A stretch of 64,000 nucleotides of DNA from IMG/VR virus record IMGVR_UViG_2526164631_000023. One strand, given 5' to 3'. Positions 2,683 through 55,093 of this stretch are shown in pieces. The notes beneath the pieces were generated by a model. The model was not told the DNA's origin. It worked only from the letters and a program-made list of their open reading frames with translations, and made no database searches. Each line of letters begins with the position of its first letter. The first letter of the stretch is position 1. The position numbers and the translations under genes are program-made. This DNA comes from a virus. Lineage: Duplodnaviria > Heunggongvirae > Uroviricota > Caudoviricetes.

Positions 2683-3663
2683 TTAACCGATTGCTTTCAG
2701 GCCATGAACAAGAGCAAGTTGCGGGTCATCCGCCACGAAGAAACGGTCATCACGAATATTAACTTGCTCGCGAATTGCATCTGCCACCAGCGGTGCGCCA
2801 CCACCGATCACCATGACATGCGTATATCCTTTAAAGTCGCCAATCACATCAAGAACGCGGGTACGCAGACGGTCAATGCTTGCGGCAATGGCCTTTTTCA
2901 CATCACCAATCGCTGATGGGTCATTGATATTGTCGTTCAGATAATCTTCATCGTGGCGGTTAATAATGAGCTGATCAACATTGTAATTTGACGTTTCGGT
3001 ATTGGCTCTGGCAAGTGCTTGCCTTACTTCCCTGGTAACCAGAGAGACGCCAAGATTCGAATCGCCAAAAACACGGGAAACTGCCGTCATTTGCCCGGCG
3101 ACCATTGAAACATCAAGGGTAGTTCCACCCAAATCGACGATAAGAACAGAATGGGCAGGGTTCAGATTGTCGCACAGGCCAATTCCTGCCGGAATAGACT
3201 CCGGGCGTACCGTAACTTTCTTAATCGTGAACACATTGCCTTTATTCAGCGTGACGGGGCGCATAAGGCTGGCTTTCTTGCGCTCGATGTTATCGAGATT
3301 GTATTGCGCGTCGTCGTCGTAAAACTCCGCCAGAGGCAGCGTGACCACAATTTCTACTTCCTGCGGCTCAATGCCACTTGTCAGCAGGGCATGGTGAACA
3401 GCCAGGACGTTAAGCGGGCTGTATTGCCATTCCACGTTATTCGTCGGCAGAACATCTGGCGAGATCAAATCATACGAATACTTTTCGTCGTCAATGACAT
3501 AGTTAAACGGCTTGCCAGCACAAAATGTTGCTGACCATCCGCGCTTAAAGCTGTTAGGGCTGATGTGAGTGCGAGTTTCCCCGTCGTGCTCCCACAGCAT
3601 TTTGATATTGGTTGAACCATCATCGATAAAAATGCGCATCTTCTTGCTCCACTTCTGAGACAC
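2683..3663 (-). CDS. parM: ParM/StbA actin-like plasmid segregation ATPase (type II partition)
   Basis: MRIFIDDGSTNIK..HISPNSFKR..WQYS..NVLAVHHALLTSG..ESIPAG..DLGGTTLD..YGDSNLGVSLVT..THVMVIGGGA: actin-fold phosphate and adenosine motifs closely matching R1 ParM as remembered. Confidence 0.85.
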   Translation of the reverse strand: MSQKWSKKMRIFIDDGSTNIKMLWEHDGETRTHISPNSFKRGWSATFCAGKPFNYVIDDEKYSYDLISPDVLPTNNVEWQYSPLNVLAVHHALLTSGIEPQEVEIVVTLPLAEFYDDDAQYNLDNIERKKASLMRPVTLNKGNVFTIKKVTVRPESIPAGIGLCDNLNPAHSVLIVDLGGTTLDVSMVAGQMTAVSRVFGDSNLGVSLVTREVRQALARANTETSNYNVDQLIINRHDEDYLNDNINDPSAIGDVKKAIAASIDRLRTRVLDVIGDFKGYTHVMVIGGGAPLVADAIREQVNIRDDRFFVADDPQLALVHGLKAIG

Positions 3664-22706: not shown

Positions 22707-23153
22707 ATGGCTGAAAATTTAAAGGCAAGAGATGGTAACCGCCTGTATAAGGCGCAATTGCTTTCCTACTATTATTCACGCCGCGCTGAGTCGGCGATCG
22801 GCAAAGGTGCGCGTTTTGTTATCTCTAAGGCGTATTGGTGCAAATCTAGTCTGGTAACTGCTAATGGTGCAGGAGGCTGGAATATAGCGGACATTCCACT
22901 CGATTTTAAATTGAGAAACGCTCAGCAGTTTGCTGTGTCCGATCTGATATTGTCCAGTGTGGATGGGATTATCACTATCAATGCAGCCTTCCCTCAAGAA
23001 AGAATGCCGGATAACACGCCTTACGACTTTAACACGCTTGTGCTTGTTGATGCTGAGGAACAGGCTTTTGCTGTGCTTTGCACCCAGCAAGACACCCTCT
23101 ATAAAGGTAAACGTTACAGTATTCTCATGACAATCGAGCAAGTTGAGGGTTGA
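22707..23153 (+). CDS. Tail-fibre operon protein (R-position), 148 aa
   Basis: Immediately upstream of and overlapping the tail-fibre gene. Confidence 0.35.
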   Translation: MAENLKARDGNRLYKAQLLSYYYSRRAESAIGKGARFVISKAYWCKSSLVTANGAGGWNIADIPLDFKLRNAQQFAVSDLILSSVDGIITINAAFPQERMPDNTPYDFNTLVLVDAEEQAFAVLCTQQDTLYKGKRYSILMTIEQVEG

Positions 23154-26100
23154 TTATGGGTGCTGATAAAACGAACAACATAATGACACTATCCTCTGGT
23201 GTCTCACAGCCGTTGCTTGCTGATGTTCAATATTTCGAACTCTATAGTAGTTCGGCTCTTAACAGAAAACTTAAAAATATTGTTTTGCCGGGCTTTTACT
23301 GTGGATTTGAACCAGTTCCCGGCGCAGGGTTGAGAGTCCGTATAACTTCTGAAAACTCAGAAGGTAAAGGGGCTGCTTCAGTAGATGTAAATAATGTTCA
23401 GATATCCGTTCAGCAAATAGAAGATGTGACTGTCTCGGTAAAGGCTGGGGCTACCAACATTATTGTGCTAGAAGCCAATTTTGAACATGGTGTAAAAACG
23501 ACACAGGTAGAGAGCGCATCTTCTGTCAGTGCTGCAAGAATTTACGCGCGTACGGACAATACTATTGGGCAGAATCAAATTGAATTATGTCGAGTTATCG
23601 TGCCTAACGGCGCAACGGCTGTGACGAAAGAAATGATTGTGCTTAAATACCGGGTTAACCGTGCTGTTGGTGTCGAATTCTCTAATGAAATAAGCAGTAC
23701 AGAAGAAAGAAAAGCGGCTACACCTCTGGCTGTCAAAACTCTCCATGATTTGGTTGATACAAAAGCTCCGCTCGATAGTCCACATCTGTCAGGTACGCCG
23801 ACAGCACCTACGGCCTCACAAGGCACAAATAGCACGCAGATTGCAAATACAGCCTTTGTTAAGGCAGCTATAACTGCACTTATCAACGGTGCACCTGGCA
23901 CACTGGATACGCTGAAAGAAATAGCGGCTGCGATCAATAACGACCCGAATTTCAGCACAACTATCAACAATGCCCTGGCTCTCAAAGCGCCTTTGGCAAG
24001 CCCGGCGTTCACAGGTACGCCGACAGCACCTACGGCCTCACAAGGCACAAATAGCACGCAGATTGCTACGACCGCTTATGTAAGAGCTGCCATATCCGCA
24101 TTGGTTGGTTCATCACCAGAAGCTCTTGATACCCTGAATGAGCTTGCCGCAGCACTTGGTAATGACCCGAACTTTGCGACAACAATGACAAATGCGCTGG
24201 CAGGCAAACAGCCTCTGGATGCAACTTTAACCGCTCTTGCTTCCCTTGCGACTGGTGCAAACAAACTGCCTTATTTCACGGGTAAGGATACGGTAGCTCA
24301 GACTGATTTAACGTCAGTCGGTCGCGATATTCTGGCTAAAACAAGCATACTGGCCGTTATCCAATACCTTGGTTTAAGAGAACTCGGTACCAGCGGTGAA
24401 AAGATCCCCCTGTTAAGCACAGCTAACACATGGAGTGCGCGCCAGACTTTCAACGGCGGGATCACCGGGGCGCTGACAGGGAACGCCGACACCGCGACGA
24501 AATTGAAAACCAAAAGGTCGCTTCAAGTTGACCTCCAAAGTGATAACGCCATCGACTTTGATGGTTCATCAAATGCTCTTCTGGGCATAAAAGGTATTTT
24601 ACCAATTACTCATGGGGGATTAGGTGCATCCAGCGTCTCTGGAGGGCGTACTAATCTTGGATTAGGTGTTGCGGACGTCCCCCAATTTAAGGGTATCAAT
24701 CTTGTTAACTCAACAGACGCTGATTTAGCCGCGTCAGGGATTGTAAGTGGTTATCTGAATAATTCAGCTGGGGTACAGAGGAGTCGTTTCAGAATTTATT
24801 CAGAGATAAGGAGTGGCAACCGCTCATGGCTGACGTTACATCTACAATCTGATACCAACACCAATAAATATGCCGGATTAGACATTGACGGTAACTTTCT
24901 GATTACCGGAGATAGCAAATGCCGAGCATTAGAACCAACTGATGCAGCGTTAACAAGAAAAAATATTGATGTTTACAGCAAAGCCGAAGTAGACCTTAAA
25001 AAAGGGATGAAATTCACCAGAGTCAATGCTCCTTCTGGAGCTGAAGAGGGTAAATTCTATCCTGTAGTCATCAAGAGATCTGCAACGAGCAATGGTGAAC
25101 TTGCTTCTCGGGTTATTATTTCCACTGCGTCGCGCCAAGCTGCACATCGCATGAACAACTGCGAATTCAATGGTTTTGTGATGCCTGCTGGTTGGAGTGA
25201 CAGAGGGCGGTACGCATACGGGATGTTCTGGCAATATCAGGATGCAGAACGGGCGATTCATTCTATTGCGATGAGCAATAAAGACGATGAAGTTAGCTCA
25301 GTTTTTTATATTGAAGGCGGAGCATTTCCAGTATGCGTTCTTGTGGAGGAGGGGCTTTCTGTTGTTGTCCCTACAACGGATTATATTGTTGGACAAACCA
25401 CATACAAATGGGGGGCTACCAACCCTAAAGCTGAATGTATAGCTGCCGACATAATTATTGATTTTAGCAATGGTCGTGGTTTCTATAGCTCTGGAAACCT
25501 CAATGGTAATGCTGCAACAGCAACTAAATTACAGACCGCCAGAACAATCAACGGAGTAACCTTCGATGGCACTACTGATATTTCGTTGACACCAGAGAAC
25601 ATTGGCGCGCTGTCTCTATCCGGAGGCACATTATTAGGAGGTCTGACAGCTCCATTACTTACCACTAAAAGCGATCTTATTTTTAGTAGCCATACAAGCC
25701 GTCATATCCGCTTTACATATACGAAAAATGACGGCACAACACTAACTGATGGGTACATATTTAAAGATGGCGTCGATAACCCTAACAGACGACCAGGCAT
25801 CCGGATAAATTGTGCTGCGCCGAATAAAGAAACCGGCAATGGTACTAATTCAGGTGATTGGATATTCGGTGAAGATGGCATTTTTACCATGCCGGGTGGC
25901 ACTGTTCTTCGGGGAGGAATCAATAGCAATGGCGTGCCGCAAAGTGAGTATAAACATGACATGCTCACGTCAGTTGTTGACGATGCAAAAATGTATCTGC
26001 GACGTTTCCGCTCCAGCACAGGTGCAAGCATATGGCATGAAACAATAGAGAATAATGTTTATCGCTTATGCACAGGAACAACTGACGCTCAGGAAGAGTT

Positions 26101-27475
26101 AGTCTTGAGGACTGGTTCCTATGCGAAATTCGCTGGCGAGATTATTTCCAAATCGGCGAATGGTCTGCGCATTGTCTATGGCAACTATGGATTCTTTATC
26201 CGAAACGATGGTTCAAGCACATACTTCATGTTGACCGATTCGGGTAACAGCCTAGGAACCTATAATAGGTTAAGGCCGCTTATCATTAACAATGCCAATG
26301 GTGCTGTTACGATCGGTAATGGACTCAATGTTACTGGCGGCATCAATGGTAGTTTGAACGGTAATGCTGCAACTGCAACAAAACTGCAAACAGCACGCAC
26401 AATAGGCGGTGTGTCATTCGATGGCTCCGCCAATATCAACCTGCCGGGTGTAAACATTGCTGGTAACCAGAACACAACCGGTAATGCAGCGACAGCGACC
26501 AAGTTGCAGACAGCATGTACTATCAACGGCGTCTCGTTTGATGGTTCTAAAGATATTGAACTTAACCCACGGTCTATAGGCACGATCAACTCCACAACAA
26601 TGTCTTTTAGTGGTGGTGCTGGATGGTTCAAGCTAGCAACTGTAACCATGCCACAGGCCAGTTCCGTGGTTTACATAAGCCTGATTGGTGGTGCAGGGTA
26701 TAACGTTGGCTCCCCGCATCAAGCAGGCATCTCTGAGCTGGTTCTGCGTGCCGGAAATGGAAATCCAAAAGGTATTACTGGTGCATTATGGCGACGGACC
26801 TCGGTTGGATTTACTAATTTTGCATGGGTGAATACATCTGGTGATACCTATGATGTTTATGTTGAAATAGGTAATTACGCCACAGGTGTTAATATTCAGT
26901 GGGATTATACCAGTAACGCCAGCGTAACGATTCATACATCACCAACTTATACAGCGAATAAACCAACAGGCCTGACAGATGGAACTGTATATGTAATTTA
27001 CAGTTCGCACATTAAACCGACTGCTGCTGATGTTGGGGCGTTGTCATTATCTGGAGGTCAATTGAATGGTGCACTGGGCATCGGAACATCCAGTGCTCTT
27101 GGCGGTAACTCGATTGTTTTGGGTGATAATGACACGGGCTTTAAACAAAATGGCGACGGTAATCTGGACGTTTATGCTAATAACGTCCATGTTATGCGCT
27201 TTGTCTCCGGCAGCATTCAAAGTAATAAAACCATAAATATTACAGGGCGTGTTAACCCCTCGGATTACGGTAACTTTGATTCCCGTTATGTGAAAGATGT
27301 TCGCCTGGGTACGCGTGTTGTTCAATTGATGGCGCGTGGTGGTCGTTATGAAAAAGCCGGACACGCAATTACCGGATTAAGAATCATTGGTGAAGTAGAT
27401 GGCGATGATGAAGCCATCTTCAGACCAATACAAAAATACATCAATGGCACATGGTATAACGTCGCACAGGTGTAA
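23150..27475 (+). CDS. Tail fibre protein S: constant N-terminal part fused to the currently expressed variable C-terminal cassette
   Basis: 1441 aa with repeated GNAATATKLQTARTI(N/G)GV(S/T)FDGS motifs and C-terminal ..INGTWYN; shares internal segments with reverse-strand cassette. Confidence 0.8.
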   Translation: MIMGADKTNNIMTLSSGVSQPLLADVQYFELYSSSALNRKLKNIVLPGFYCGFEPVPGAGLRVRITSENSEGKGAASVDVNNVQISVQQIEDVTVSVKAGATNIIVLEANFEHGVKTTQVESASSVSAARIYARTDNTIGQNQIELCRVIVPNGATAVTKEMIVLKYRVNRAVGVEFSNEISSTEERKAATPLAVKTLHDLVDTKAPLDSPHLSGTPTAPTASQGTNSTQIANTAFVKAAITALINGAPGTLDTLKEIAAAINNDPNFSTTINNALALKAPLASPAFTGTPTAPTASQGTNSTQIATTAYVRAAISALVGSSPEALDTLNELAAALGNDPNFATTMTNALAGKQPLDATLTALASLATGANKLPYFTGKDTVAQTDLTSVGRDILAKTSILAVIQYLGLRELGTSGEKIPLLSTANTWSARQTFNGGITGALTGNADTATKLKTKRSLQVDLQSDNAIDFDGSSNALLGIKGILPITHGGLGASSVSGGRTNLGLGVADVPQFKGINLVNSTDADLAASGIVSGYLNNSAGVQRSRFRIYSEIRSGNRSWLTLHLQSDTNTNKYAGLDIDGNFLITGDSKCRALEPTDAALTRKNIDVYSKAEVDLKKGMKFTRVNAPSGAEEGKFYPVVIKRSATSNGELASRVIISTASRQAAHRMNNCEFNGFVMPAGWSDRGRYAYGMFWQYQDAERAIHSIAMSNKDDEVSSVFYIEGGAFPVCVLVEEGLSVVVPTTDYIVGQTTYKWGATNPKAECIAADIIIDFSNGRGFYSSGNLNGNAATATKLQTARTINGVTFDGTTDISLTPENIGALSLSGGTLLGGLTAPLLTTKSDLIFSSHTSRHIRFTYTKNDGTTLTDGYIFKDGVDNPNRRPGIRINCAAPNKETGNGTNSGDWIFGEDGIFTMPGGTVLRGGINSNGVPQSEYKHDMLTSVVDDAKMYLRRFRSSTGASIWHETIENNVYRLCTGTTDAQEELVLRTGSYAKFAGEIISKSANGLRIVYGNYGFFIRNDGSSTYFMLTDSGNSLGTYNRLRPLIINNANGAVTIGNGLNVTGGINGSLNGNAATATKLQTARTIGGVSFDGSANINLPGVNIAGNQNTTGNAATATKLQTACTINGVSFDGSKDIELNPRSIGTINSTTMSFSGGAGWFKLATVTMPQASSVVYISLIGGAGYNVGSPHQAGISELVLRAGNGNPKGITGALWRRTSVGFTNFAWVNTSGDTYDVYVEIGNYATGVNIQWDYTSNASVTIHTSPTYTANKPTGLTDGTVYVIYSSHIKPTAADVGALSLSGGQLNGALGIGTSSALGGNSIVLGDNDTGFKQNGDGNLDVYANNVHVMRFVSGSIQSNKTINITGRVNPSDYGNFDSRYVKDVRLGTRVVQLMARGGRYEKAGHAITGLRIIGEVDGDDEAIFRPIQKYINGTWYNVAQV
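24357..24382. other. gix/cix-like 26-bp recombinase crossover site (site A), in frame inside the fibre gene
   Basis: TTATCCAATACC TT GGTTTAAGAGAA matches remembered Gin-site TTATCCAAAACCTCGGTTTACAGGAA at ~20/26; encodes VIQYLGLRE. Confidence 0.5.
26132..26365. repeat. 234-bp inverted repeat, copy 1 (inside S), ~98% identical to reverse complement of 29167-29400
   Basis: Both copies encode EIISKSANGLRIVYGNYGFFIRNDGSSTYFMLTDSGNSLGTYNRLRPLIINNANGAVTIGNGLNVTGGINGSLNGNA. Confidence 0.8.
26196..26221. other. Candidate crossover site B inside the inverted repeat
   Basis: TTATCCGAAACG AT GGTTCAAGCACA; left half fits Hin-family half-site; inverted copy at 29310-29335. Confidence 0.3.
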
Positions 27476-27478
27476 ATT

Positions 27479-28006
27479 ATGCAGCATTTAAAAAATATTA
27501 AGTCAGGAAATCCAAAAACAAAAGAGCAATATCAGCTAACAAAGAATTTTGATGTTATCTGGTTATATACAGAAGACGGTAAAAACTGGTATGAGGAAGT
27601 AAATAACTTTCAGGACGACACCATAAAGATTGTTTACGATGAAAATAATATTATTGTCGCCATCACCAAAGATGCATCCACGCTTAACCCTGAAGGTTTT
27701 AGCGTCGTTGAGGTTCCCGATATTACAGCCAACCGCCGCGCTGATGATTCAGGAAAGTGGATGTTTAAGGATGGAGCTGTAGTTAAACGGATTTATACGG
27801 CAGACGAGCAACAACAACAGGCCGAATCACAAAAGGCCGCATTGCTTTCCGAAGCTGAATCAGTCATCCAACCGCTGGAACGCGCTGTCAGGCTGAATAT
27901 GGCAACAGACGAGGAACGCACACGACTGGAAGCATGGGAACGCTACAGTGTTCTGGTCAGCCGTGCGGATACGGCAAATCCTGAATGGCCACAAAAACCA
28001 GAGTAA
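27479..28006 (+). CDS. Tail fibre assembly chaperone (U/Tfa) for the current cassette
   Basis: 175 aa; N-terminal half ~70% identical to reverse-strand paralog 28035..28568; starts 4 nt after S stop. Confidence 0.8.
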
Positions 28007-28010
28007 AAAT

Positions 28011-28030
28011 TAAGGCCCGATAGCGGGCCT
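28011..28030. terminator. Bidirectional hairpin between convergent U and U' genes
   Basis: aaggcccgatagcgggcctt: 7-bp stem aggcccg/cgggcct. Confidence 0.45.
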
Positions 28031-28034
28031 TCTC

Positions 28035-28568
28035 TCATTCTGGTTGTTCGGGAAACGTTACTGGCAGGCCGGAAGTGTCTGTAGATTCGACTTTCTGCGC
28101 ATAGAGCATCCACTCGGTTAATTTTTGTTTATTCTCGTCGGAAATGATGCCCAGCCGTAGCTGTGAGTCCCATAGCTGGGTTTTATCCCTGACAAGTTGC
28201 AACAGGCTTTGCTTTTCATTTTCCGCTTGTTGCCTCTGCTCTTCCTCGGTATAAGTTCGCTTTATCACTACGCCATCTTTGAACATCCATTTCCCCGAAA
28301 TATCAGCCCGGCGATTTGCTGTAATATCAGGTAATTCAACGACGCTTGCACCCTCTGGATTAATTGCTGAAACATCCTTTTCAATACAAATAATAACGCC
28401 GTTATGGTCATAGACCATTTTCAAAGTGTCTGGCTGGAAATTCTTTTGTTCCTCATACCAGTTTTTTCCATCATCTGAATAAAGCCATTTGATGTTAAAT
28501 TGCTTTGTTAGCTGGTATTGCTCTTTTGTTTTAGGGTTGCCAGCAGTAATGTTTTTTAAGTGCATCAT
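28035..28568 (-). CDS. Alternative tail fibre assembly chaperone (U')
   Basis: 177 aa paralog of U on the opposite strand, directly downstream of the alternative fibre cassette. Confidence 0.8.
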   Translation of the reverse strand: MMHLKNITAGNPKTKEQYQLTKQFNIKWLYSDDGKNWYEEQKNFQPDTLKMVYDHNGVIICIEKDVSAINPEGASVVELPDITANRRADISGKWMFKDGVVIKRTYTEEEQRQQAENEKQSLLQLVRDKTQLWDSQLRLGIISDENKQKLTEWMLYAQKVESTDTSGLPVTFPEQPE

Positions 28569-28570
28569 CG

Positions 28571-30241
28571 TTAAATACTCCCCGCGTTATACCACGTCCC
28601 ATTAATGCAATACTGAATTGGCCTTGCCTGAGTTGTATCAATTAATTCATCACGGTTTCCGTTAACTGAACCCGTAACGACATAACCTGACCTGTCAGAC
28701 CAGCCGGGACCATTCCATGTCTGAACAGATGACAGACCGCCAAGGCGAATACCTGTAATAAACCTTGAGTTACATTCTGCCTGCGTGTATGCACCAACAT
28801 CTCCCGCAGAGGGTTTGCGGGTCGTGGTGTAAAACTCTGACCAGTCAGCCTCAAATCCATAACCATCACGCGCTGAACGATAAAAGATACCGCCGTTTTT
28901 ATAATTCACGCGGAACTGTACAGCAGGGCAACTCCCCGCATTCATATTAAAGTGGAGGATTAATGTCGATGCGCCACCAATGTTTGCGTTATAGACCCCG
29001 CTATTCCAGTTCCAGCCAACAGCTTTATCATTTGCGACCCTGCTTCCTGTTTGCCCTAGAGCAAACGCACCTACATGACTTGCTTTTAATGTGATATCGG
29101 AGGAACCATCAAAAGCCACGCCACTTATTTTTCTGGCAGTTTGTAACTTTGTAGCCGTAGATGCATTACCGTTCAAACTACCATTGATGCCGCCAGTAAC
29201 ATTGAGTCCATTACCGATCGTAACAGCACCATTGGCATTGTTAATGATAAGCGGCCTTAACCTATTATAGGTTCCTAGGCTGTTACCCGAATCGGTCAAC
29301 ATGAAGTATGTGCTTGAACCATCGTTTCGGATAAAGAATCCATAGTTGCCATAGACAATACGAAGACCATTCGCCGATTTGGAAATAATCTCGCCAGCAG
29401 CAGTTAATCCGCCAGTTAACGCTCCTCCAGATAGTGGTAAAGCTCCGACATCAGCCGCAGTAGGCTTGTTTTTAGTGTTATACGCTCTGCGCCATCCTGG
29501 TGAATAACTTGTGCCATTAGACACATAGATAAATTCAGCATTAGTGAGTGCGCCAGATACACTTGTCATCGTTGCCGTTGTTATTCGAATGGTGTAATTG
29601 TTGGTATTATTGCTGAATACTTCTATCACAGCACCCGCCAGTGGAATAATGCCACAACCAGTTTCACTGTCTGGTATGGATGCACTATTTGCATACGCCC
29701 AAGCACAACGAGCGAACCATGCTTTCGTATTGAATGCCCCGTTATTTTGCAACAAAGTAACTAACTGGGCTGTCGTTATTGACTCACCGTTATTACCTGT
29801 TGTTAACCAACCAGTAGGAGATGCCGGGCAACCAATATTTGCTGGTGACAGTGAAATATTCGCAGAACCGTCAAATGAAACCCCATTAATGGTACGTGCT
29901 GTTTGTAATGTCGTGGCAGACGCCGCATTTCCTGTTGTGTTCTGGTTGCCCGTTGTATTTACGCCCGGTATGGAGTCTTTCGATGTATAGACCTGTGCCC
30001 ACTCAGACCATGCCGCACCTGTGTAATCTCTTCGGGAGCGAATGAAAACTGGCGCATGTGCACCGCTCGTACCACTCCAGCCAATAAGCAACTCGCCCTC
30101 ACCAGCAGCACTCGCACCTTTCATGTGCAATACGTTGCCATACGTGGTCGGGTAGCTATTGTTGTACGCCTCGTACATTTGAATGCCAGCAGCGCCTTGA
30201 GTAGAGCCGCTTAACGCCGTAACTCGGCCACGAGATACCAA
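28571..30241 (-). CDS. Alternative tail fibre C-terminal cassette (Sv'): promoterless, no credible start
   Basis: Track start is TTG without SD and frame closes 15 codons upstream; fibre repeats (GNQNTTGNAASATTLQTARTINGVSFDGS) and C-terminal ..INGTWYNAGSI. Confidence 0.7.
   Translation of the reverse strand: MVSRGRVTALSGSTQGAAGIQMYEAYNNSYPTTYGNVLHMKGASAAGEGELLIGWSGTSGAHAPVFIRSRRDYTGAAWSEWAQVYTSKDSIPGVNTTGNQNTTGNAASATTLQTARTINGVSFDGSANISLSPANIGCPASPTGWLTTGNNGESITTAQLVTLLQNNGAFNTKAWFARCAWAYANSASIPDSETGCGIIPLAGAVIEVFSNNTNNYTIRITTATMTSVSGALTNAEFIYVSNGTSYSPGWRRAYNTKNKPTAADVGALPLSGGALTGGLTAAGEIISKSANGLRIVYGNYGFFIRNDGSSTYFMLTDSGNSLGTYNRLRPLIINNANGAVTIGNGLNVTGGINGSLNGNASTATKLQTARKISGVAFDGSSDITLKASHVGAFALGQTGSRVANDKAVGWNWNSGVYNANIGGASTLILHFNMNAGSCPAVQFRVNYKNGGIFYRSARDGYGFEADWSEFYTTTRKPSAGDVGAYTQAECNSRFITGIRLGGLSSVQTWNGPGWSDRSGYVVTGSVNGNRDELIDTTQARPIQYCINGTWYNAGSI
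29167..29400. repeat. 234-bp inverted repeat, copy 2 (inside Sv')
   Basis: Reverse complement nearly identical to 26132-26365. Confidence 0.8.
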
Positions 30242-30265
30242 TGTATTAATGTTGGTTTAAGAGAA
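30240..30265. other. Second gix/cix-like site (site C), same orientation as site A
   Basis: AATGTATTAATG TT GGTTTAAGAGAA; right half and next ~130 bp identical to site A flank. Confidence 0.4.
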
Positions 30266-30568
30266 CTCGGTACCAGCGGTGAAAAGATCCCCCTGTTGAG
30301 TACGGCTAACACATGGAGTGCACGCCAGACTTTCAACGGCGGGATCACCGGGGCGCTGACAGGGAATGCCGACACCGCGACGAAATTGAAAACAGCACGC
30401 ACGATTGGCGGTGTGGTATTTGATGGCTCGGCCAATATCAACCTTCCAGGTGTAAATACAACAGGTAACCAGAACACCACCGGGAATGCTGCTACCGCGA
30501 CAAAACTTGCGACGGCAAGAAACATCAACGGTGTTAAGTTTGATGGCTCAGGCGATATCAAGGTTTAG
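30252..30568 (+). pseudogene. Third, short tail-fibre 3' cassette (S'') lacking a start codon; possible remnant
   Basis: First 142 bp ~96% identical to 24369-24510; encodes ..GLRELGTSGEKIPLLSTANTWSARQTFNGGITGALTGNADTATKLKTARTIGG..GDIKV; stop overlaps invertase stop. Confidence 0.5.
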
Positions 30569-31125
30569 GATTGAAATGATGACGCCGGAAACTTCTTATA
30601 AAGCGTGGAAACAGCCACATCATAGATGATTGCAACCTGCTTACGGGGGATGCCCTTCTCCAGCAATCGCCGCATTTGCTGCCATGTTTCTTCTTGGTAT
30701 TTAGGCCGACGCCCACCTATACGACCTTCTGCGCGAGCTGCATCAAGTCCAGCGCGTGTACGTTCAACGATAAGCTCGCGTTCCATTTCTGCCAGCGCCC
30801 CCATTACGTGAAAGAAAAAGCGCCCCATTGGTGTACTGGTGTCGATGGAGTCAGTGAGACTCCGGAAGTTAATGCCTTTGTCACGAAGCTCTTCCACCAG
30901 CACAACCAAGTGACGCATGCTGCGCCCAAGACGATCTAACTTCCATACGACTAGGGTGTCACCTCTGGAAAGCATACGGAGAACCTTTTTTAACCCAGGG
31001 CGTTCAGCCTTTTTGCCGCTCGCCTTATCCTCAAAAATTAGCTCACATCCTGCGCTTTCAAGGGCGTTTCGTTGTAAAGCTGTGTTTTGGTCATTAGTTG
31101 ATACGCGAATGTATCCAATAAGCAT
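30565..31125 (-). CDS. Serine DNA invertase, Hin/Gin/Cin/Min family
   Basis: From ATG (complement 31125) MLIGYIRVSTNDQN..GDTLVVWKLDRLGRS..MGALAEMERELIVERT.. with catalytic Ser in the YxRVST motif and C-terminal HTH; SD aagggg upstream; track start 31185 is an in-frame upstream extension. Confidence 0.9.
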   Translation of the reverse strand: MLIGYIRVSTNDQNTALQRNALESAGCELIFEDKASGKKAERPGLKKVLRMLSRGDTLVVWKLDRLGRSMRHLVVLVEELRDKGINFRSLTDSIDTSTPMGRFFFHVMGALAEMERELIVERTRAGLDAARAEGRIGGRRPKYQEETWQQMRRLLEKGIPRKQVAIIYDVAVSTLYKKFPASSFQS

Positions 31126-32612: not shown

Positions 32613-34541
32613 CAATCCTTTACGAATTAATATTCAGTCTACTTTTGCTGATACGATCCCCGGCTATATGCCAAGTCGCTGGTCTTCAGAAGAATTAAGC
32701 GAAGATGACCTGATTTTTGAGGCGGCGACCTTAGAAGATATTGAGCTTGCCTATATGGGCAATGAAATTCTGGTTGTGTCTGACGAAGCTATGTTTGAGT
32801 CCATAACTACAACCAGAATTCGGTTAGCTCAAACAATGCGAGCTTTCGTCCGTGCGCTGAATCGTGGCCTGAATGGTACGAATATTATGGCAGGGACTGA
32901 TGAAGCCGGGACCGATGAAAATGGACGTAATTGTATTGGTGGTGCGATTATCGGTCGTGTACGTCGGGTAGCTAATATCCCTGTTTTGACCGCGCAGATA
33001 CCGCTTACTGACGGGCAGAGTACAAGCATAATTTTCCACTCTCCAACAGCTGACGGGGCAAAAATAAAGAGTAACGACGAGCTTGTTGCATTTCAGTTTT
33101 TACTTAATAAGCGTAACGTAACTCACGTTGTCGCCCCGATTGGTGGGAGAGATGTTTCTTTAAGCCAGGTATGCCAGGCGCTATCTAATTTGATTGAGCG
33201 TAACAGCGAAAAATTTAAGAAGGCAAAAGAGCGCCAGGACAAAATGAAGGCAGATATTGAGAGTTATCTCAATGAAGCAGATAAACTGGCAGAAGAACGG
33301 TCAATAATGATTGATCAGGTGGACGTTGCGCAACGTGGGCTGACTGAAAAGCGTGCTGCTCTTACGGAGATGCAAAAAAACTTGATGCCCAGAAAGCCAT
33401 CAACGAGGAATTACAAGCAAAACGCGATAAATTGTTGTCTGCTAAAGGTGAAAAAACGAAAGAACGAGCGTTTAGCGACCAGCTGCGACATGTAAAACAT
33501 AATCTTGCCATTGACGGAAAAACAGTGCTGGATAATGGCGCTGAAGTTAATTATGTCACGTCCGGCAGTGACAATTTCGTTACGATAGTAGCACCTGAAG
33601 GTAAATTCAGTATTGATGCCAGTGCTGTCAAAGGAGGCAGTTTGGCAGATGCTGCAACCAAATTACTTAAAGCCTACCGAGAGCATAACGCAGATAAATA
33701 TAAAGTTGATGTGTTACCAGGCCAGCAGGAAGACCCCGAACCACCACAGACAGACCCCGAGACGAACCCAGTATCACAACCAGAGAGCCAGGATGTAGGT
33801 AAATACCACTATGCACTTCAATCTCGCCCGGCTGGTGTTGGTGCTGTGCCGGATGGAAATAAAGCCGTGCTTGATCGTCCTGACCAGGCTGATCAGTATT
33901 ACGAATATGCTCGTCACGGTATCATTACGTATGACCGTAAACTGACAGATGAAGAAGTCAGCCAGTACGAGTTGCTCTATCTTCCTGATGAAGATGAGCT
34001 GAAAGATTTTGCAGGCCAATTGGTTGTGTCCAGCATGTCGAAACATATTGATGGCTATGTAGACCTGTTTGGCAGTGACCTGAAAACATTCAAGGCGCAA
34101 GTGAAAATTCTTTTCCGCAAAGCGTTTCCAAACGTGGCGTATCCACTTGGTGATGGGGAGAACCTTTTCATTATGGACGTATATAACGCCCTTCAAAATC
34201 ATTCAAACGAAGTAACGCCAGAGCCTGAATTAGCACCTGTAGTTGAGCCAGAATCACACCCACAAACAGCACCAGAGCAACAGCCAACGCCGGAAGACGC
34301 TGAAGAAGCGGCAACTGAAGCTGATCAGGAAGCAGATAAAGCACTGGAGTACCTAAAATCCGTCCCGGTGCAGTTTACATCTCGCGATCTGACGGTAATC
34401 AGTGCCGAACTTGACCATGTGCAGGAAGCTGCAAACGCTCTTATCAGTGCTGGTCGATACGACGAGAACGAATCAACGGTTGGCGCAGCAGTTGACTACC
34501 TGATCAACATTCTGGCTGAAATTCAGCAGGGAGGTGCTTAA
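32604..34541 (+). pseudogene. darA-like virion antirestriction/head gene split by +1/-2 frameshift in an A7 tract (33374-33380)
   Basis: ORFs 32566..33495 and 33432..34541 overlap in different frames; one extra A gives a continuous ~645-aa protein (..TEMQKKLDAQKAINEELQAKRDKLLSAKGEK..), size close to P1 DarA as remembered. Confidence 0.5.
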
Positions 34542-42453: not shown

Positions 42454-45400
42454 GTGAAAATAACATTCTCCATACCCTCTCAACCGTACCGCATAGCGGA
42501 ATTTTTACGGTTTAGAGGGGGAAATCCTTTGGACAAACTACTTCATTCAATCAGTGAAGCCTCCAGCTTAGGCGAACTGATTGAAATTGTTAGTCGGTTG
42601 CATAAATTACGAGCTGTTGCGACCTTTGGCGTCAGGAAAGCCGATGGCGTCAGTATTCAGAAAACACGCCGGGCAGCAAACAATGCCGCAGTAAATCTTC
42701 TTAATTCCCTTCCGCCCGGCTTCGATGGGGCGAAATTAACTGACGAACAACGTCAGATTCTTGCCGGGTATACCGGTGAAGGCGGCCTGACAGATGGTGA
42801 GGGCAGCCAATACGAATACTACACGCCACAGTTTATGGCTGAAGGTATATGGGATCTGTTTGCTGGCTACGGTATTGATGGCGGGCACGTACTGGAACCA
42901 TCAGCGGGCACAGGTATTTTCCAGGAGACAAAACGACAGGGCATGATAATGACCAGCGCCGAACTGTCTCCGATTTCCGGTCGAATAAACCAGCTTTTGC
43001 ACCCGGAAGACGATGTGAATATCGGGGCGTTTGAGGCGCTGGCGGCGAAAGACGCAATGTATGATCACGCTGTTGGTAACGTACCGTTTGGTGAAGGGCG
43101 TTCCGGTGTCGCCGGGCTTGATCCGGCATATGCAAACGAGAAGAACGTTGGCAATTACTTTGTGCTGCGCACGATCGACAAGGTTAAGCCTGGTGGGCTT
43201 ATCGTATTGGTGGTGCCGAATGGCATGACCGATGGTGCGAAATATAAAAAATTGCGCGATAAAGTCAGCCGTAAAGCGGAATTTTTGGGCGCGCATCGTA
43301 TGCCTTCCGGTACGTTCAGTGAATCAGGTACAGATACCGTGGTGGACGTATGGGTATTGCGTAAACACCCGGAAGCCTTCCTGGAGATGATCCCCGATAC
43401 GGATGATTCGACGCTCAAATCGGCAAACGTCCTTTGGGATACCTTCCTCAAAGGAAAATGGTTTACAACCGAAGGGAAGCGATTTGTTTACGGCGACATG
43501 GAACGTACCAGCTTCCGCAATACCCTGGTGGTGAAAAAAGACGGTCGTGTATCCAATGAGTCGATGAAAACCGCGCTATCTCGTCGCTTTGATAGTCGCA
43601 TCAATTGGGATTTGCTCGGCGTAACTACTCAGGCATGGCAGGGCGCGAAAGTGGGCGATAAACGCCTTGTAGGCGGTATCTGGCATGAGTTTGATGGTCT
43701 GAAATGGGTTAAGGACACGACAACCAAATCCTCCGCGCTTGATGTAAGTCGATATGGTGTTTCGACGTTTGGCGATCTGCAGATCGCGTTTCAGTCAACA
43801 AATGGCATTCTGGCTTTGTCATGGGACCAGATATCGGCGATCGCGTCTGACTATCCATCGGTTGTCAGTGATGAAGTGGCAGCAATGATTCGCTTTGCTG
43901 GCAAGCAGCGAGAAAAAGACAGGGAGCGCGTTATGCGCGGTGCACTGATAGGTCAGTTGATCAACAAGGCACTTGATTTGCGTAACCTGGGGGTGAACGT
44001 TGATGACAAACTGGCAGATGCATCCCGCCTGGCGGCAGCAGAAGTTGCGAAGTATGGACCACCGCACGCGATTAAGCTGAATGGGCTTGCTGAAGCTGGC
44101 GCTAAAAACTGGATGACGTTCACTGGCAATGTGAAACAGGATGGTTCCACTTCTGACCTTCTGGCAGGGCGACTTGATGTAACGGATGGTGCTGCCGGTA
44201 TTGACTTTACGCGTCCTGAACAAGTGATAGCACATCTTTTTAGTGATGTAGCCCTTAATCCTATAACGCTGGGCGACTTTCGTGAGGCGTTTGCTGGTGA
44301 ACTGCCAGAGGACGACGACGCGGCCCTTGAATACCTGGCGAAATTTGATGATATCGCTATTGATGGGTATGGCTGTCTGCTGCCGATGGACCGCGCCACC
44401 AGCGGCGATGTTGCAACCAAAACAGCACTGCTGATGGGCTGGCGTGATGCGTCAACAGGTGAGCAGAAAGCGAACTTTGAGCGTCAGTTGGCGAAAATCG
44501 AAGAGAAACGTATTTTCACGCCACTAAATAAAGTCACCGTTAATCTGAATGCCCGCTGGCTGGATCGCCGCTTGATAAAAGAGTTCCTGGCAGAGCAGGG
44601 CTATGACGAGTTTAAGTACACTGAACCTGATCTGAAGGTCGTCGATGGCATTCTGGTATCTCCGGACGATTACGAAGGTAAGGACGGGGTATTTACCGGC
44701 TATCAGCTACGAACCGTAAACGGCAAAAACGGGAATGAGTTCAAGAAGGCCAACAATAAAGACGGCTTCCTGAACCAGTTAGAAAACTACCTGAACGGTG
44801 TTAAACCGCGTGGGCAGAACGCTAACGAGTACCTGGATAAAATTGCTCAACTGGAAGTTAGTTTTAACGACTGGTTACGCACTCACCCGCAGGCTGATCA
44901 GATAGCCCGCGAGTATAACGACGCATTCAATGGTTTCATTCCGTTCACGCATTCTGACGCACCGCTTGGCCTGGAAGGGCTTAGTGGAAAGCGCATTCCT
45001 CTTACTTATCAGAATGAAGAAGTTCGGCGCTTGTCAGAAGATGGGCGCGGCATCATGGGATTTGGTACCGGGCTGGGTAAAACCACGACCGCGCTTGCGC
45101 TTGAGGCGTATAACTTCGAAACAGGTCGCACTAAACGCACGTGTATTGTTGTTCCGAAGGCGGTTTATCAGAACTGGTATCACGAGGCACAGAGTTTCTA
45201 CAGTGCTGATGCCTTCGCCAATATGATGTTTATCGGTTTGGATGAAGTTCGTGATGACAGCGGAAATATTCTGACCGCGCCGGTGCTTGATGAAAATGGC
45301 GAACCACGCCTCGACAGTAACGGGCAGCCTCTTACCAGAAATGTTGTGAAAGAGTCCGCCAGCGCCGTTATCGTTCAGCGTATGAACATGATCCCGTCGT

Positions 45401-53798: not shown

Positions 53799-53874
53799 GA
53801 TGGTGTAGCTCAGTAGGATAGAGCAGCAGCCTTCTAAGCTGTCGGTAGGTGGTTCGAATCCACCCACCATCGCC
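53799..53874 (+). tRNA. tRNA-Arg (anticodon TCT)
   Basis: Hand-folded cloverleaf: acceptor gatggtg/caccatc, T-arm ggtggTTCGAATccacc, anticodon loop cTTCTAa, 3' CCA encoded. Confidence 0.65.
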
Positions 53875-53879
53875 AATTT

Positions 53880-53967
53880 AGGGGAGTTAGTCCGTAGGGG
53901 TAGCGGGGTAGACTGTAAATCTACTGTCATTGCGACTCGGGTGGTTCGACTCCATCACTCCCCACCA
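53880..53967 (+). tRNA. tRNA-Tyr (anticodon GTA), long variable arm
   Basis: Acceptor ggggagt/actcccc, anticodon stem-loop gtaga-cTGTAaa-tctac as in E. coli tRNA-Tyr, T-loop TTCGACT, CCA encoded; D-arm irregular. Confidence 0.55.
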
Positions 53968-53971
53968 AATT

Positions 53972-54047
53972 GCCGGTTTAGCTCAGTTGGTAGAGCAGTC
54001 GCTTTGTAAGCGAATGGTCAGCGGTTCGATCCCGTTAACCGGCACCA
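53972..54047 (+). tRNA. tRNA-Thr (anticodon TGT)
   Basis: Acceptor gccggtt/aaccggc, D-arm gctcAGTTGGTAgagc, anticodon loop tTTGTaa, T-loop TTCGATC, CCA. Confidence 0.65.
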
Positions 54048-54501
54048 ACACAACAGGTAAGAGCATTTGTAGAGTTCGACTCTCTACCGTGGGCTTTTTC
54101 CCGCGATGCGAGCCATAAATGCTCTTACCGTTGTGATGAAGTGCAGCTCTTTGAAGCAACCAGAAGATAAGCATCTGGCTTCACAACATAAACCGCAGGA
54201 ACGACCAATAAACGGTAGTCCGTATGGAGAACACCCCGTTGAGGAAGAGGTCTGGCCGGAACCGTAACCGGCACTACAACGTTGAGAACACTGGCGTAAC
54301 GGGGTCATATCCCAATCTACGAATAAATGTTGCGTTGCAGCGTGACAACCAGTGTTCTCAACATTGTGGTGAATGCGCAGGCTGATGCGCGAAAGACATT
54401 GCAGCTATTGCGGAAAAGAGCTGTTCGGCGGGGCAATTAAACGCCCGTGAGAGTCTGAAATAACCGCAAGCCGGAGATCAGCACCGGTCGCCACAATAAC
54501 G

Positions 54502-54588
54502 GGAGAGTAGGGAGCATGGTGCTCAAGCGGTCTTGAAAACCGTCCCATTGCGCAAGCGATGATGGTTCGATTCCATTACTCTCCGCCA
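54502..54588 (+). tRNA. tRNA-Ser (anticodon TGA), long variable arm
   Basis: Acceptor ggagagt/actctcc, anticodon stem-loop gcggt-cTTGAaaa-accgt (as in E. coli serT), T-loop TTCGATT, CCA. Confidence 0.55.
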
Positions 54589-54879
54589 GTGCAACGTTAA
54601 GAGTATTTGGCTAATTAAGCGAATGCCGGAAGCAGAACCGGATCACCAAATGCGTACAGGCGTCATCGCCGCCCAGCCAGCCAAGTGCTCTTACCATTGC
54701 GGTGAATGCGGCTAAGCGCACGCGGAACAGTTAAAACAGTAAAGGTGGTCTTTTTACTGGCGTAACGAGAATCCATAAGTGATCCGGCGTTAATTGTTAA
54801 CTGGTTAACGTCACCGGGAGGCACCCGGCACCGCAACCTAACAGCAATGGCGTTTTGTCTTAAAAGGTGGCTGCAAGTG

Positions 54880-55008
54880 ATGGATTTTTGGGCGTTTGCC
54901 GATAAAAACCCGGAGTGGACATTATTGTTTCTGCTGGTGGTTGCATACGGGGTAGAGCAAGCGGCAAAAGCCTTACGCGGTTCTGGCAAAAAGCGTAAGC
55001 GTAATTAA
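54880..55008 (+). CDS. Candidate small hydrophobic peptide (42 aa) between tRNA-Ser and tRNA-Ile
   Basis: SD aaggtgg 9 nt upstream of ATG; MDFWAFADKNPEWTLLFLLVVAYGVEQAAKALRGSGKKRKRN. Confidence 0.25.
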   Translation: MDFWAFADKNPEWTLLFLLVVAYGVEQAAKALRGSGKKRKRN

Positions 55009-55017
55009 CAGTAATCT

Positions 55018-55093
55018 GGCCCTTTAGCTCAGTGGTTAGAGCGGGCGACTCATAATCGCACGGTCACCGGTTCAAGTCCGGTAGGGGCCACCA
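55018..55093 (+). tRNA. tRNA-Ile2 type (anticodon CAT, ileX-like)
   Basis: ggccctttagctcagtggttagagc..gactCATAAtcgc..ggttcaagtcc..aggggccacca is near-identical in layout to E. coli ileX as remembered. Confidence 0.7.

Follow-up and report, generated by a model that had tools for sequence, protein, structure and literature searches.

A second, inner exchange point in the Cin-invertible tail-fibre locus of a D6/P1-like phage-plasmid

The window analysed here, a 64,000-nt stretch of the IMG/VR virus record IMGVR_UViG_2526164631_000023 (Caudoviricetes), carries a tail-fibre locus with two alternative fibre cassettes that share a near-perfect inverted repeat of 234 bp. Over the 6.4 kb compared (window 24300-30700) it is 100% identical to pDEC12A-1 (NZ_CP077480.1; 97,453 bp) from Escherichia coli O111:H2 strain 12A, a D6/P1-like phage-plasmid in which the sequences flanking the fibre operon match phage D6 at 96-99% identity. 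The genes follow the order of the P1 C segment, namely R, S, U / U', Sv', and cin. We divided the locus into blocks a, b, I, c (26439-29091), I', and d, in which notation the window reads Sc/d I c I' b' a/cin.

On the plus strand, R (22707-23153), a tail-fibre structure or assembly gene, lies upstream of S and was assigned from its D6/P1 position and from a Pfam match to Phage_P1_tail_fiber_R on an identical product. S (23156-27475, plus strand) is the expressed tail-fibre gene, an open reading frame (ORF) of 1439 amino acids (aa) from its ATG that corresponds exactly to protein WP_000500552.1. It is composed of Sc, d, I, and SvC, a combination designated V1, and its product matches the Pfam families Phage_fiber_2, Gp34_trimer, and gp37_trimer. 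At the boundary between Sc and the variable part lies cixR (24357-24382, plus strand; TTATCCAATACC TT GGTTTAAGAGAA), a 26-bp crossover site of Cin that is intact and has the same sequence as the cixR annotated in P1 and in D6. With a score of 29.4 it is the top site of the window in a Din-family matrix built from 13 published hix, gix, cix, pix, mix, and bix sites (PMC3241671 Table 3); an earlier, smaller matrix made from P1 and D6 cix halves led to the same conclusion as the 13-site matrix. The C-segment terminal repeat X follows (24369-24510, plus strand), 96% identical to its counterpart X' at 30252-30393 and matching both ends of the D6/P1 C segment. Block d (24511-26131, plus strand), defined by block mapping, is the proximal variable shaft module that is now joined to Sc; in sister plasmids the other tip is attached to it.

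Beyond the first repeat arm, SvC (26439-27475, plus strand) encodes the distal, receptor-binding fibre end that is now expressed, with a gp37_trimer match; its last ∼210 nt (27264-27475) fall inside a longer match (27264-29069) with 94% identity to D6 and 92.6% to P1. Each tip is accompanied by its cognate chaperone gene, and both chaperones were assigned to Pfam family Caudo_TAP: U, cognate to SvC (27479-28006, plus strand; E = 3.6e-36), and U', cognate to Sv'C (28035-28568, minus strand; E = 2.2e-36). Sv'C itself (28571-29091, minus strand), the silent alternative distal end, has a gp37_C match within a 556-aa minus-strand ORF and is 94% identical to D6 Sv'. Block b (29399-30251, minus strand), the silent alternative proximal shaft module, was delimited by block mapping and has lost its 5' part, segment a. 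That segment (30252-30561, plus strand), consisting of X' and two 120-nt fibre repeats, is flipped relative to its ancestral orientation and is 100% identical to positions 3070-3379 of the related locus L003. The serine DNA invertase gene cin (30565-31125, minus strand; 186 aa, with Resolvase and HTH_7 domains) closes the locus, and 183 of its 186 residues are identical to those of both P1 Cin and D6 Cin. A putative Fis-dependent recombinational enhancer within cin (31036-31107, no strand assigned) was recognized by homology to the annotated P1 enhancer (68/72).

These features place the locus in the Cin C-segment family of P1 and D6, as a damaged copy that lacks an intact cixL. A serine invertase gene with resolvase and helix-turn-helix domains adjoins the segment, alternative fibre C termini with their cognate chaperones lie on opposite strands, and both orientations of the segment occur in nature (CP057851.1 versus CP057845.1; CP066033 versus GCA_900450295.1). 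The two inverted 26-bp cix sites that bound such a segment are absent as a pair from the window but present in CP066033, CP057851.1, and a further relative, L004. CP057851.1 and CP057845.1 are 95,217-bp plasmids from one farm study, and their sole difference is a plain inversion between cixR and cixL. The inner repeat of the window lies 1.76 kb from cixR and ∼1.16 kb from the ancestral cixL. Since it sits within the Cin-invertible C segment, it constitutes a second, inner tier of a known switch. A preliminary description of this DNA had read the repeat as a substrate for inversion, a reading that holds, but it had overlooked the enclosing P1-type Cin/cix C segment.

An inverted-repeat search of the window delimited two arms of 307 nt, I (26132-26438, plus strand) and I' (29092-29398, minus strand), which are 92% complementary and 2653 nt apart. 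Base-by-base comparison of 26132-26365, the near-perfect part of arm I, with the reverse complement of 29165-29398 gave 232 identical bases out of 234. The preliminary description had correctly placed the first of these copies but had set the second at 29167-29400, 2 nt away from its true mirror. The only mismatches over the 234 nt (26167, G/T; 26170, C/T) fall at third codon positions and are synonymous. They are followed by a perfect tract of 197 nt (26171-26367), and identity drops sharply at both ends, to ∼70% from 26368 onward. Both arms lie in the codon register of their own ORFs and encode the same 78 residues (AGEIISKSANGLRIVYGNYGFFIRNDGSS...GSLNGN; residues 995-1072 of S), as the preliminary description had noticed. 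Pfam assigned Gp34_trimer to the repeat-encoded stretch in both fibre cassettes. In phage T4, this is the C-terminal trimerization module of the proximal long-fibre subunit. The repeat is therefore the coding sequence of a shared Gp34_trimer-like joint module of 78 to 102 aa, present in both alternative cassettes. The DNA bracketed by the near-perfect copies (26366-29164; 2799 nt) comprises the S C terminus, U, U', and the alternative C terminus. When the core was inverted in silico at the repeat, an in-frame S of 1269 aa resulted, with U' directly after it.

To evaluate whether exchange between the arms occurs in nature, seven further assemblies of the same plasmid family were compared block by block. 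The comparison was made at assembly level, and the contigs from the National Collection of Type Cultures (NCTC) among them are PacBio-only, contain indel errors, and are chimeric (L041, L045). CP066033 (E. coli FDAARGOS_1059) is, at 97,453 bp, as long as the window's plasmid. Apart from a relocated IS100, the two differ outside the C segment by some 2 substitutions and 3 indels over ∼58 kb. Its arrangement is Sc/a b I c I' d'/cin, as opposed to Sc/d I c I' b' a/cin in the window. The five breakpoints between the two imply at least three inversions, one of them with both ends in I and I', and like sequences are paired in a single combination only: cixR with cixL, cixL with a quasi-site, and I with I'. 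The four mismatches in the I-c-I' alignment correspond to two arm-specific single-nucleotide polymorphisms per side; these polymorphisms (26167 and 26170) always stay with the outer block, which places the crossovers within 26171-26367.

The further assemblies, which were retrieved through exact-protein look-ups, show both classes of linkage. Joining of d to SvC and of b to Sv'C was found in the window, in GCA_050054315.1 (known from block order only), and at one contig end of GCA_900449795.1. The reciprocal joining, b to SvC and d to Sv'C, was found in CP066033, GCA_900450295.1, GCA_900448305.1, and the other contig end of GCA_900449795.1, while in a chimeric contig of GCA_900449905.1, d is joined to both tips. 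Two single-culture PacBio assemblies each contain both linkages. The chimeric contigs, with the structures R Sc d c b a' Sc' R' and cin' d c d' Sc' R', show the pattern expected when an assembler meets mixed inversion isomers. Because both linkage classes occur in sublineages with and without IS100 in a darA-like gene, at least two independent inner flips must have taken place, and the backbone gained almost no substitutions across them. Exchange between the repeat copies thus occurs and recurs in this plasmid family. A search for additional inner-flip isomer pairs in other lineages (L004, L007, L008, and the 95,217-bp RHB plasmids) yielded only mosaic relatives and plain cix flips.

The four fibres predicted from the two shafts and two tips are all in frame, at 1439, 1267, 1239, and 1067 aa. 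V1 and V3 have exact matches in the protein collection, the S protein of CP066033 being the predicted V3; a V2-like protein of 1267 aa is represented by WP_112081593.1, and V4 is implied by an assembly junction. The suggestion in the preliminary description that an exchange within the repeat would swap the fibre tip together with its chaperone is borne out by the in-frame product modelled in silico and by natural isomers that carry both linkages. We conclude that, besides the outer switch, fibre parts can be exchanged at a structural joint inside the fibre, which gives four versions instead of two.

The insertion elements of these plasmids differ as well. IS100 lies in a darA-like head gene of CP066033 (record positions 42588-44543) and is absent from the corresponding window site (34008-34012), while in pDEC12A-1 an IS100 interrupts the DUF2829/Tad2 region; that both plasmids measure exactly 97,453 bp suggests relocation of IS100 within the plasmid. 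An IS2 copy also differs in position or orientation between CP066033 and pDEC12A-1.

How the arms recombine has to be judged from sequence comparison, and on balance we favour homologous recombination between them as the probable route. The inverted copies share the 197-bp perfect tract, and recombination between them flips a core of 2.65 to 2.8 kb carrying both distal fibre ends and both chaperones. In this way each shaft module, d or a+b, can be combined with each tip and its chaperone, SvC with U or Sv'C with U'; together with the ordinary flip between cixR and cixL, 2 × 2 = 4 in-frame fibres result. General homologous recombination, presumably by host RecA, could perform the exchange, and a dedicated site would be unnecessary. 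Outside the window, the plasmid has genes for RdgC and for a Ref-family recombination enhancement nuclease, which may assist. The nuclease Ref of P1 depends on RecA and owes its name to the enhancement of recombination (PMC4330346, PMC4713147).

Several observations are consistent with a homology-driven process. The inverted repeats are long, with a perfect tract well over the minimal length for pairing, and crossovers lie inside the homology with their products observed. In other P1-like lineages this module likewise forms an inner repeat, with lengths of 191 to 965 nt and 95 to 99.5% identity between the copies; their left boundary is mostly constant (64 or 118 nt before the motif shared by the arms), and their right boundary is variable, which fits homology-driven homogenization rather than action at a point site. 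The mean identity of the two arms of one plasmid, 95.1%, is higher than that of arms from different plasmids, 90.4%. A four-gamete test on 30 distinct alleles of a 190-nt core gave a minimum of 10 recombination events (Rm = 10), with breakpoints on both sides of the motif.

Other points weigh against this explanation. Four-gamete incompatibilities can be inflated by recurrent mutation. The presence of both linkages in two single-culture assemblies may mean that the flip rate exceeds that of usual RecA exchange between repeats of ∼200 to 300 bp, although the argument is a weak one, as it depends on the history of the cultures. The chimeric, error-prone nature of the PacBio-only NCTC contigs also counts here, as does the lineage with a 191-nt inner repeat, in which the CP057851/CP057845 pair differs by a cix flip only and five more matches to the 191-nt-repeat plasmid show the same match pattern as CP057851. 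Finally, every crossover falls in a tract that also holds a candidate Cin site, so that mapping cannot separate the mechanisms; the 197-nt tract carries no internal markers for these inner-flip events, and the scatter of breakpoints (Rm = 10) is seen at the level of alleles.

That candidate site is the basis of a competing proposal, which we regard as possible but doubtful: Cin would flip the inner core at two identical weak Din-type sites, TTATCCGAAACG AT GGTTCAAGCACA, located at 26196-26221 (plus strand) and, as a mirror copy, at 29309-29334, in the manner of the Min system. Their palindromic AT core would match only its twin and not the TT/AA of cix, which would give one invertase two insulated switches; we consider this fuller version, with Cin acting at TT-core cix sites and at AT-core secondary sites in the fibre joint, rather unlikely. 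Were it true, D6/P1-like phage-plasmids would possess a programmed 2 × 2 host-range shufflon with the core dinucleotide as an insulation code. The left half-site, TTATCCGAAACG (26196-26207 and 29323-29334), still has the outer block TTATC and the AAA tract seen in gix and cix half-sites, the candidate is the best Din-like 26-mer in the crossover interval, and in each two-armed lineage examined both arms keep its motif intact, with no more than 1 mismatch. Moreover, the same Cin demonstrably used a far worse quasi-site (score, −17.6) for segment a, and inner flips appear about as common as cix flips in this plasmid family. On the other hand, the candidate scores 9.9, compared with 16.2 to 30.5 for natural Din sites, and ranks only sixth or seventh in the window, with four unrelated positions scoring higher; its right half misses 3 conserved positions, and all 13 of the natural sites listed have an AA or GA core, unlike its AT. 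Matches to the gix half-site with at most 2 mismatches number 10 in the window, against 7.0 ± 2.4 expected from shuffled sequence. The Hin-family half-site that the preliminary description had placed inside the repeat accordingly occurs at chance frequency, and with the full 26-mer below all 13 natural sites, it does not hold up as evidence of a recombination site. The same motif allele is widespread in single-copy fibres, and P1 and D6 spell the same peptide as TTATTCGTAATG; together, single-copy occurrence and a different spelling give no sign of selection for a site. A motif scan of IMG/VR found 24 fragmentary loci, three of them two-armed, in a sample biased by its selection on the motif itself. 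Nor would simple cut-and-rejoin account for the long near-perfect arms or the scattered breakpoints. Taken together, the interpretation offered in the preliminary description is partly supported.

Two further explanations dispense with inversion at the repeat. In one, which we judge improbable, the arrangements would be old, horizontally reassorted mosaics, possibly formed by exchange with a chromosomal P2-like prophage carrying a homologous tip/chaperone segment, and the mixed contigs would be assembly artefacts. Mosaicism of the fibre region is indeed high in P1-like plasmids, the NCTC contigs are chimeric, and a contig of GCA_900449905.1 joins plasmid Sc-d-I to a 94-96% identical tip copy beside P2-type tail genes and another invertase. 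Yet blocks a, b, c, and d are 99 to 100% identical in all family members whatever their arrangement, with backbones that differ by few substitutions, and a core taken over from a prophage copy of 95% identity would show differences within block c. Both linkage classes, moreover, lie on both sides of a unique IS100 insertion, and the junctions span <1 kb, far below PacBio read length. The other explanation holds that the repeat is simply a conserved structural domain that is present twice, near-identical through recent duplication and without a role in rearrangement. It would suit a repeat that encodes a recognized fold module (Gp34_trimer) and the fact that most P1-like plasmids carry the module once (183 records, 223 places), but it is contradicted by repeatedly observed rearrangements with breakpoints inside the repeat, and we hold it to be very improbable.

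The GCA_900449905.1 contig just mentioned (UASF01000009.1, 586880-605326; L048) is 700 kb long and contains the plasmid's R-Sc-d-I followed by the 94-96% identical tip and chaperone copy, which adjoins a second serine invertase and P2-type tail genes. Either the shared fibre module has given rise to an assembly chimera, or plasmid and prophage have really recombined; this tip copy accounts for the 4 aa by which WP_112081593.1 differs from the predicted V2.

The outer switch of the window is broken. No intact cixL is present in the window; instead, there are two hybrid sites with one cix half apiece, at 30240-30265 (plus strand; AATGTATTAATG TT GGTTTAAGAGAA, a quasi-site half plus the inner cix half) and at 30548-30573 (plus strand; TCAGGCGATATC AA GGTTTAGGATTG, a cixL remnant in which the cin-proximal half alone is left), both identified by site scoring. 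At the corresponding position, cixL is intact in all sister plasmids examined. The difference lies in the 310-bp segment a, which is flipped exactly at the cixL core. In CP066033, a and b form one continuous ORF, and in L003, segment a follows cixR in frame; re-inverting segment a in silico restored a perfect cixL together with a contiguous ORF. The hybrid junction was seen in this plasmid alone among 5426 complete E. coli genomes, and the draft assembly GCA_050054315.1 shares the whole arrangement with the window.

The flip of segment a looks like an aberrant Cin event between cixL and a quasi-site. Recombination by Cin at quasi-cix sites, with hybrid sites as its signature, was reportedly described by Iida and Hiestand-Nauer in the 1980s. 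The present case resembles that description in that one end of segment a falls at the cixL core, the other shares TT plus 1 nt, and two hybrid sites are left; it differs in having become the fixed state of a natural plasmid and concerns the 310-bp end segment, not the 234-bp repeat. Homologous recombination was rejected for this flip, since the junctions have no more than 3 nt (TTG) in common and fall at the core dinucleotide of cixL. The quasi-site used bears no resemblance to cix, as its score given above reflects. It corresponds to the end of one unit of a fibre repeat with a 120-nt period, which encodes NGNAATATKLQTARTINGVSFDGSxDI and is present in five copies (25502-25581, 26357-26436, 26477-26556, 30359-30438, and 30479-30558).

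One consequence of the segment a flip is that the C-segment terminal repeats X and X' (142 nt), formerly inverted, are now direct (24369-24510 and 30252-30393). Modelled recombination between them deleted 5.9 kb and left a truncated fibre of 511 aa, and modelled recombination between cixR and the remnant site likewise gave a truncated fibre, of 410 aa. With cixL destroyed, the inner repeat is, among the modelled exchanges, the only productive one-step route to an alternative tip. The window would then preserve a natural example of a Cin quasi-site accident that disabled the outer switch.

Comparison with known systems places the inner repeat in relief. Relative to the C segments of P1 and D6, the locus has the same order, R-S(c)-cixR-Sv-U / U'-Sv'-cixL-cin, an identical cixR, and a near-identical Cin. 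However, its S protein is 1439 aa long, as opposed to 988 aa in P1 and 940 aa in D6, its variable arms are much longer, and cixL is destroyed in the window copy. P1 also has repeats, of 636 bp, but these abut cix, so that exchange between them gives the same product as Cin, whereas the repeat of the window lies 1.1 to 1.8 kb inside the segment and yields new combinations. The Min system of p15B is also P1 related and combines a fibre gene from several invertible pieces beside a Cin-like invertase. Min has six consensus mix sites, all with an AA core, that recombine with each other (PMC3241671 Table 3). The inner pair of the window has no consensus-grade site (9.9 versus a minimum of 16.2, with an AT core) and, unlike Min, appears to rely on ∼200 to 300 bp of homology. 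With the G segment and Gin of Mu the kinship is one of DNA, as U, U', and the S ends of the window are 93-95% identical to those of the Mu-like D108, P88, and PhiR68_1; Mu, however, has only 34-bp repeats and two states. Combinatorial switching of adhesin C termini through nested inversions is also found in R64-type shufflons, which depend on the tyrosine recombinase Rci and short specific sfx repeats, neither of which is present at the window locus. A shufflon/Rci-type system was rejected for the window because the serine recombinase Cin is the only invertase adjoining the segment; the tyrosine recombinase annotated in the sister-plasmid record is not beside the fibre region. None of the papers found in our literature search reports exchange between inner repeats of a P1-like C segment.

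In E. coli and Salmonella, resistance genes are widely carried by P1-type phage-plasmids, which also serve as delivery vectors and whose host range is generally presented as a Cin switch with two states. With a second exchange point, shaft modules and receptor-binding tips reassort within one replicon, and public assemblies show that this recurs with almost no point mutation. Host-range prediction from a single assembly is consequently unreliable, and regions of this kind give chimeric long-read contigs. The Gp34_trimer-like module also offers a natural in-frame splice point for the engineering of chimeric P1 fibres.

Some minor features of the window and its relatives complete the description. 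The constant part of S contains an 89-nt direct repeat (85% identity; 23790-23878 and 24012-24100), which may match the 222-nt b1/b2 elements annotated in P1 Sc, the 222-nt spacing being alike. Five tRNA genes, Arg-tct, Tyr, Thr, Ser, and Met/Ile-cat, are clustered at 53799-55093. The sister-plasmid record annotates a glutaminyl-tRNA synthetase gene that lies partly in the window (about 1-860), as well as a 6.8-kb SNF2-related gene and a Thoeris anti-defence Tad2 gene.

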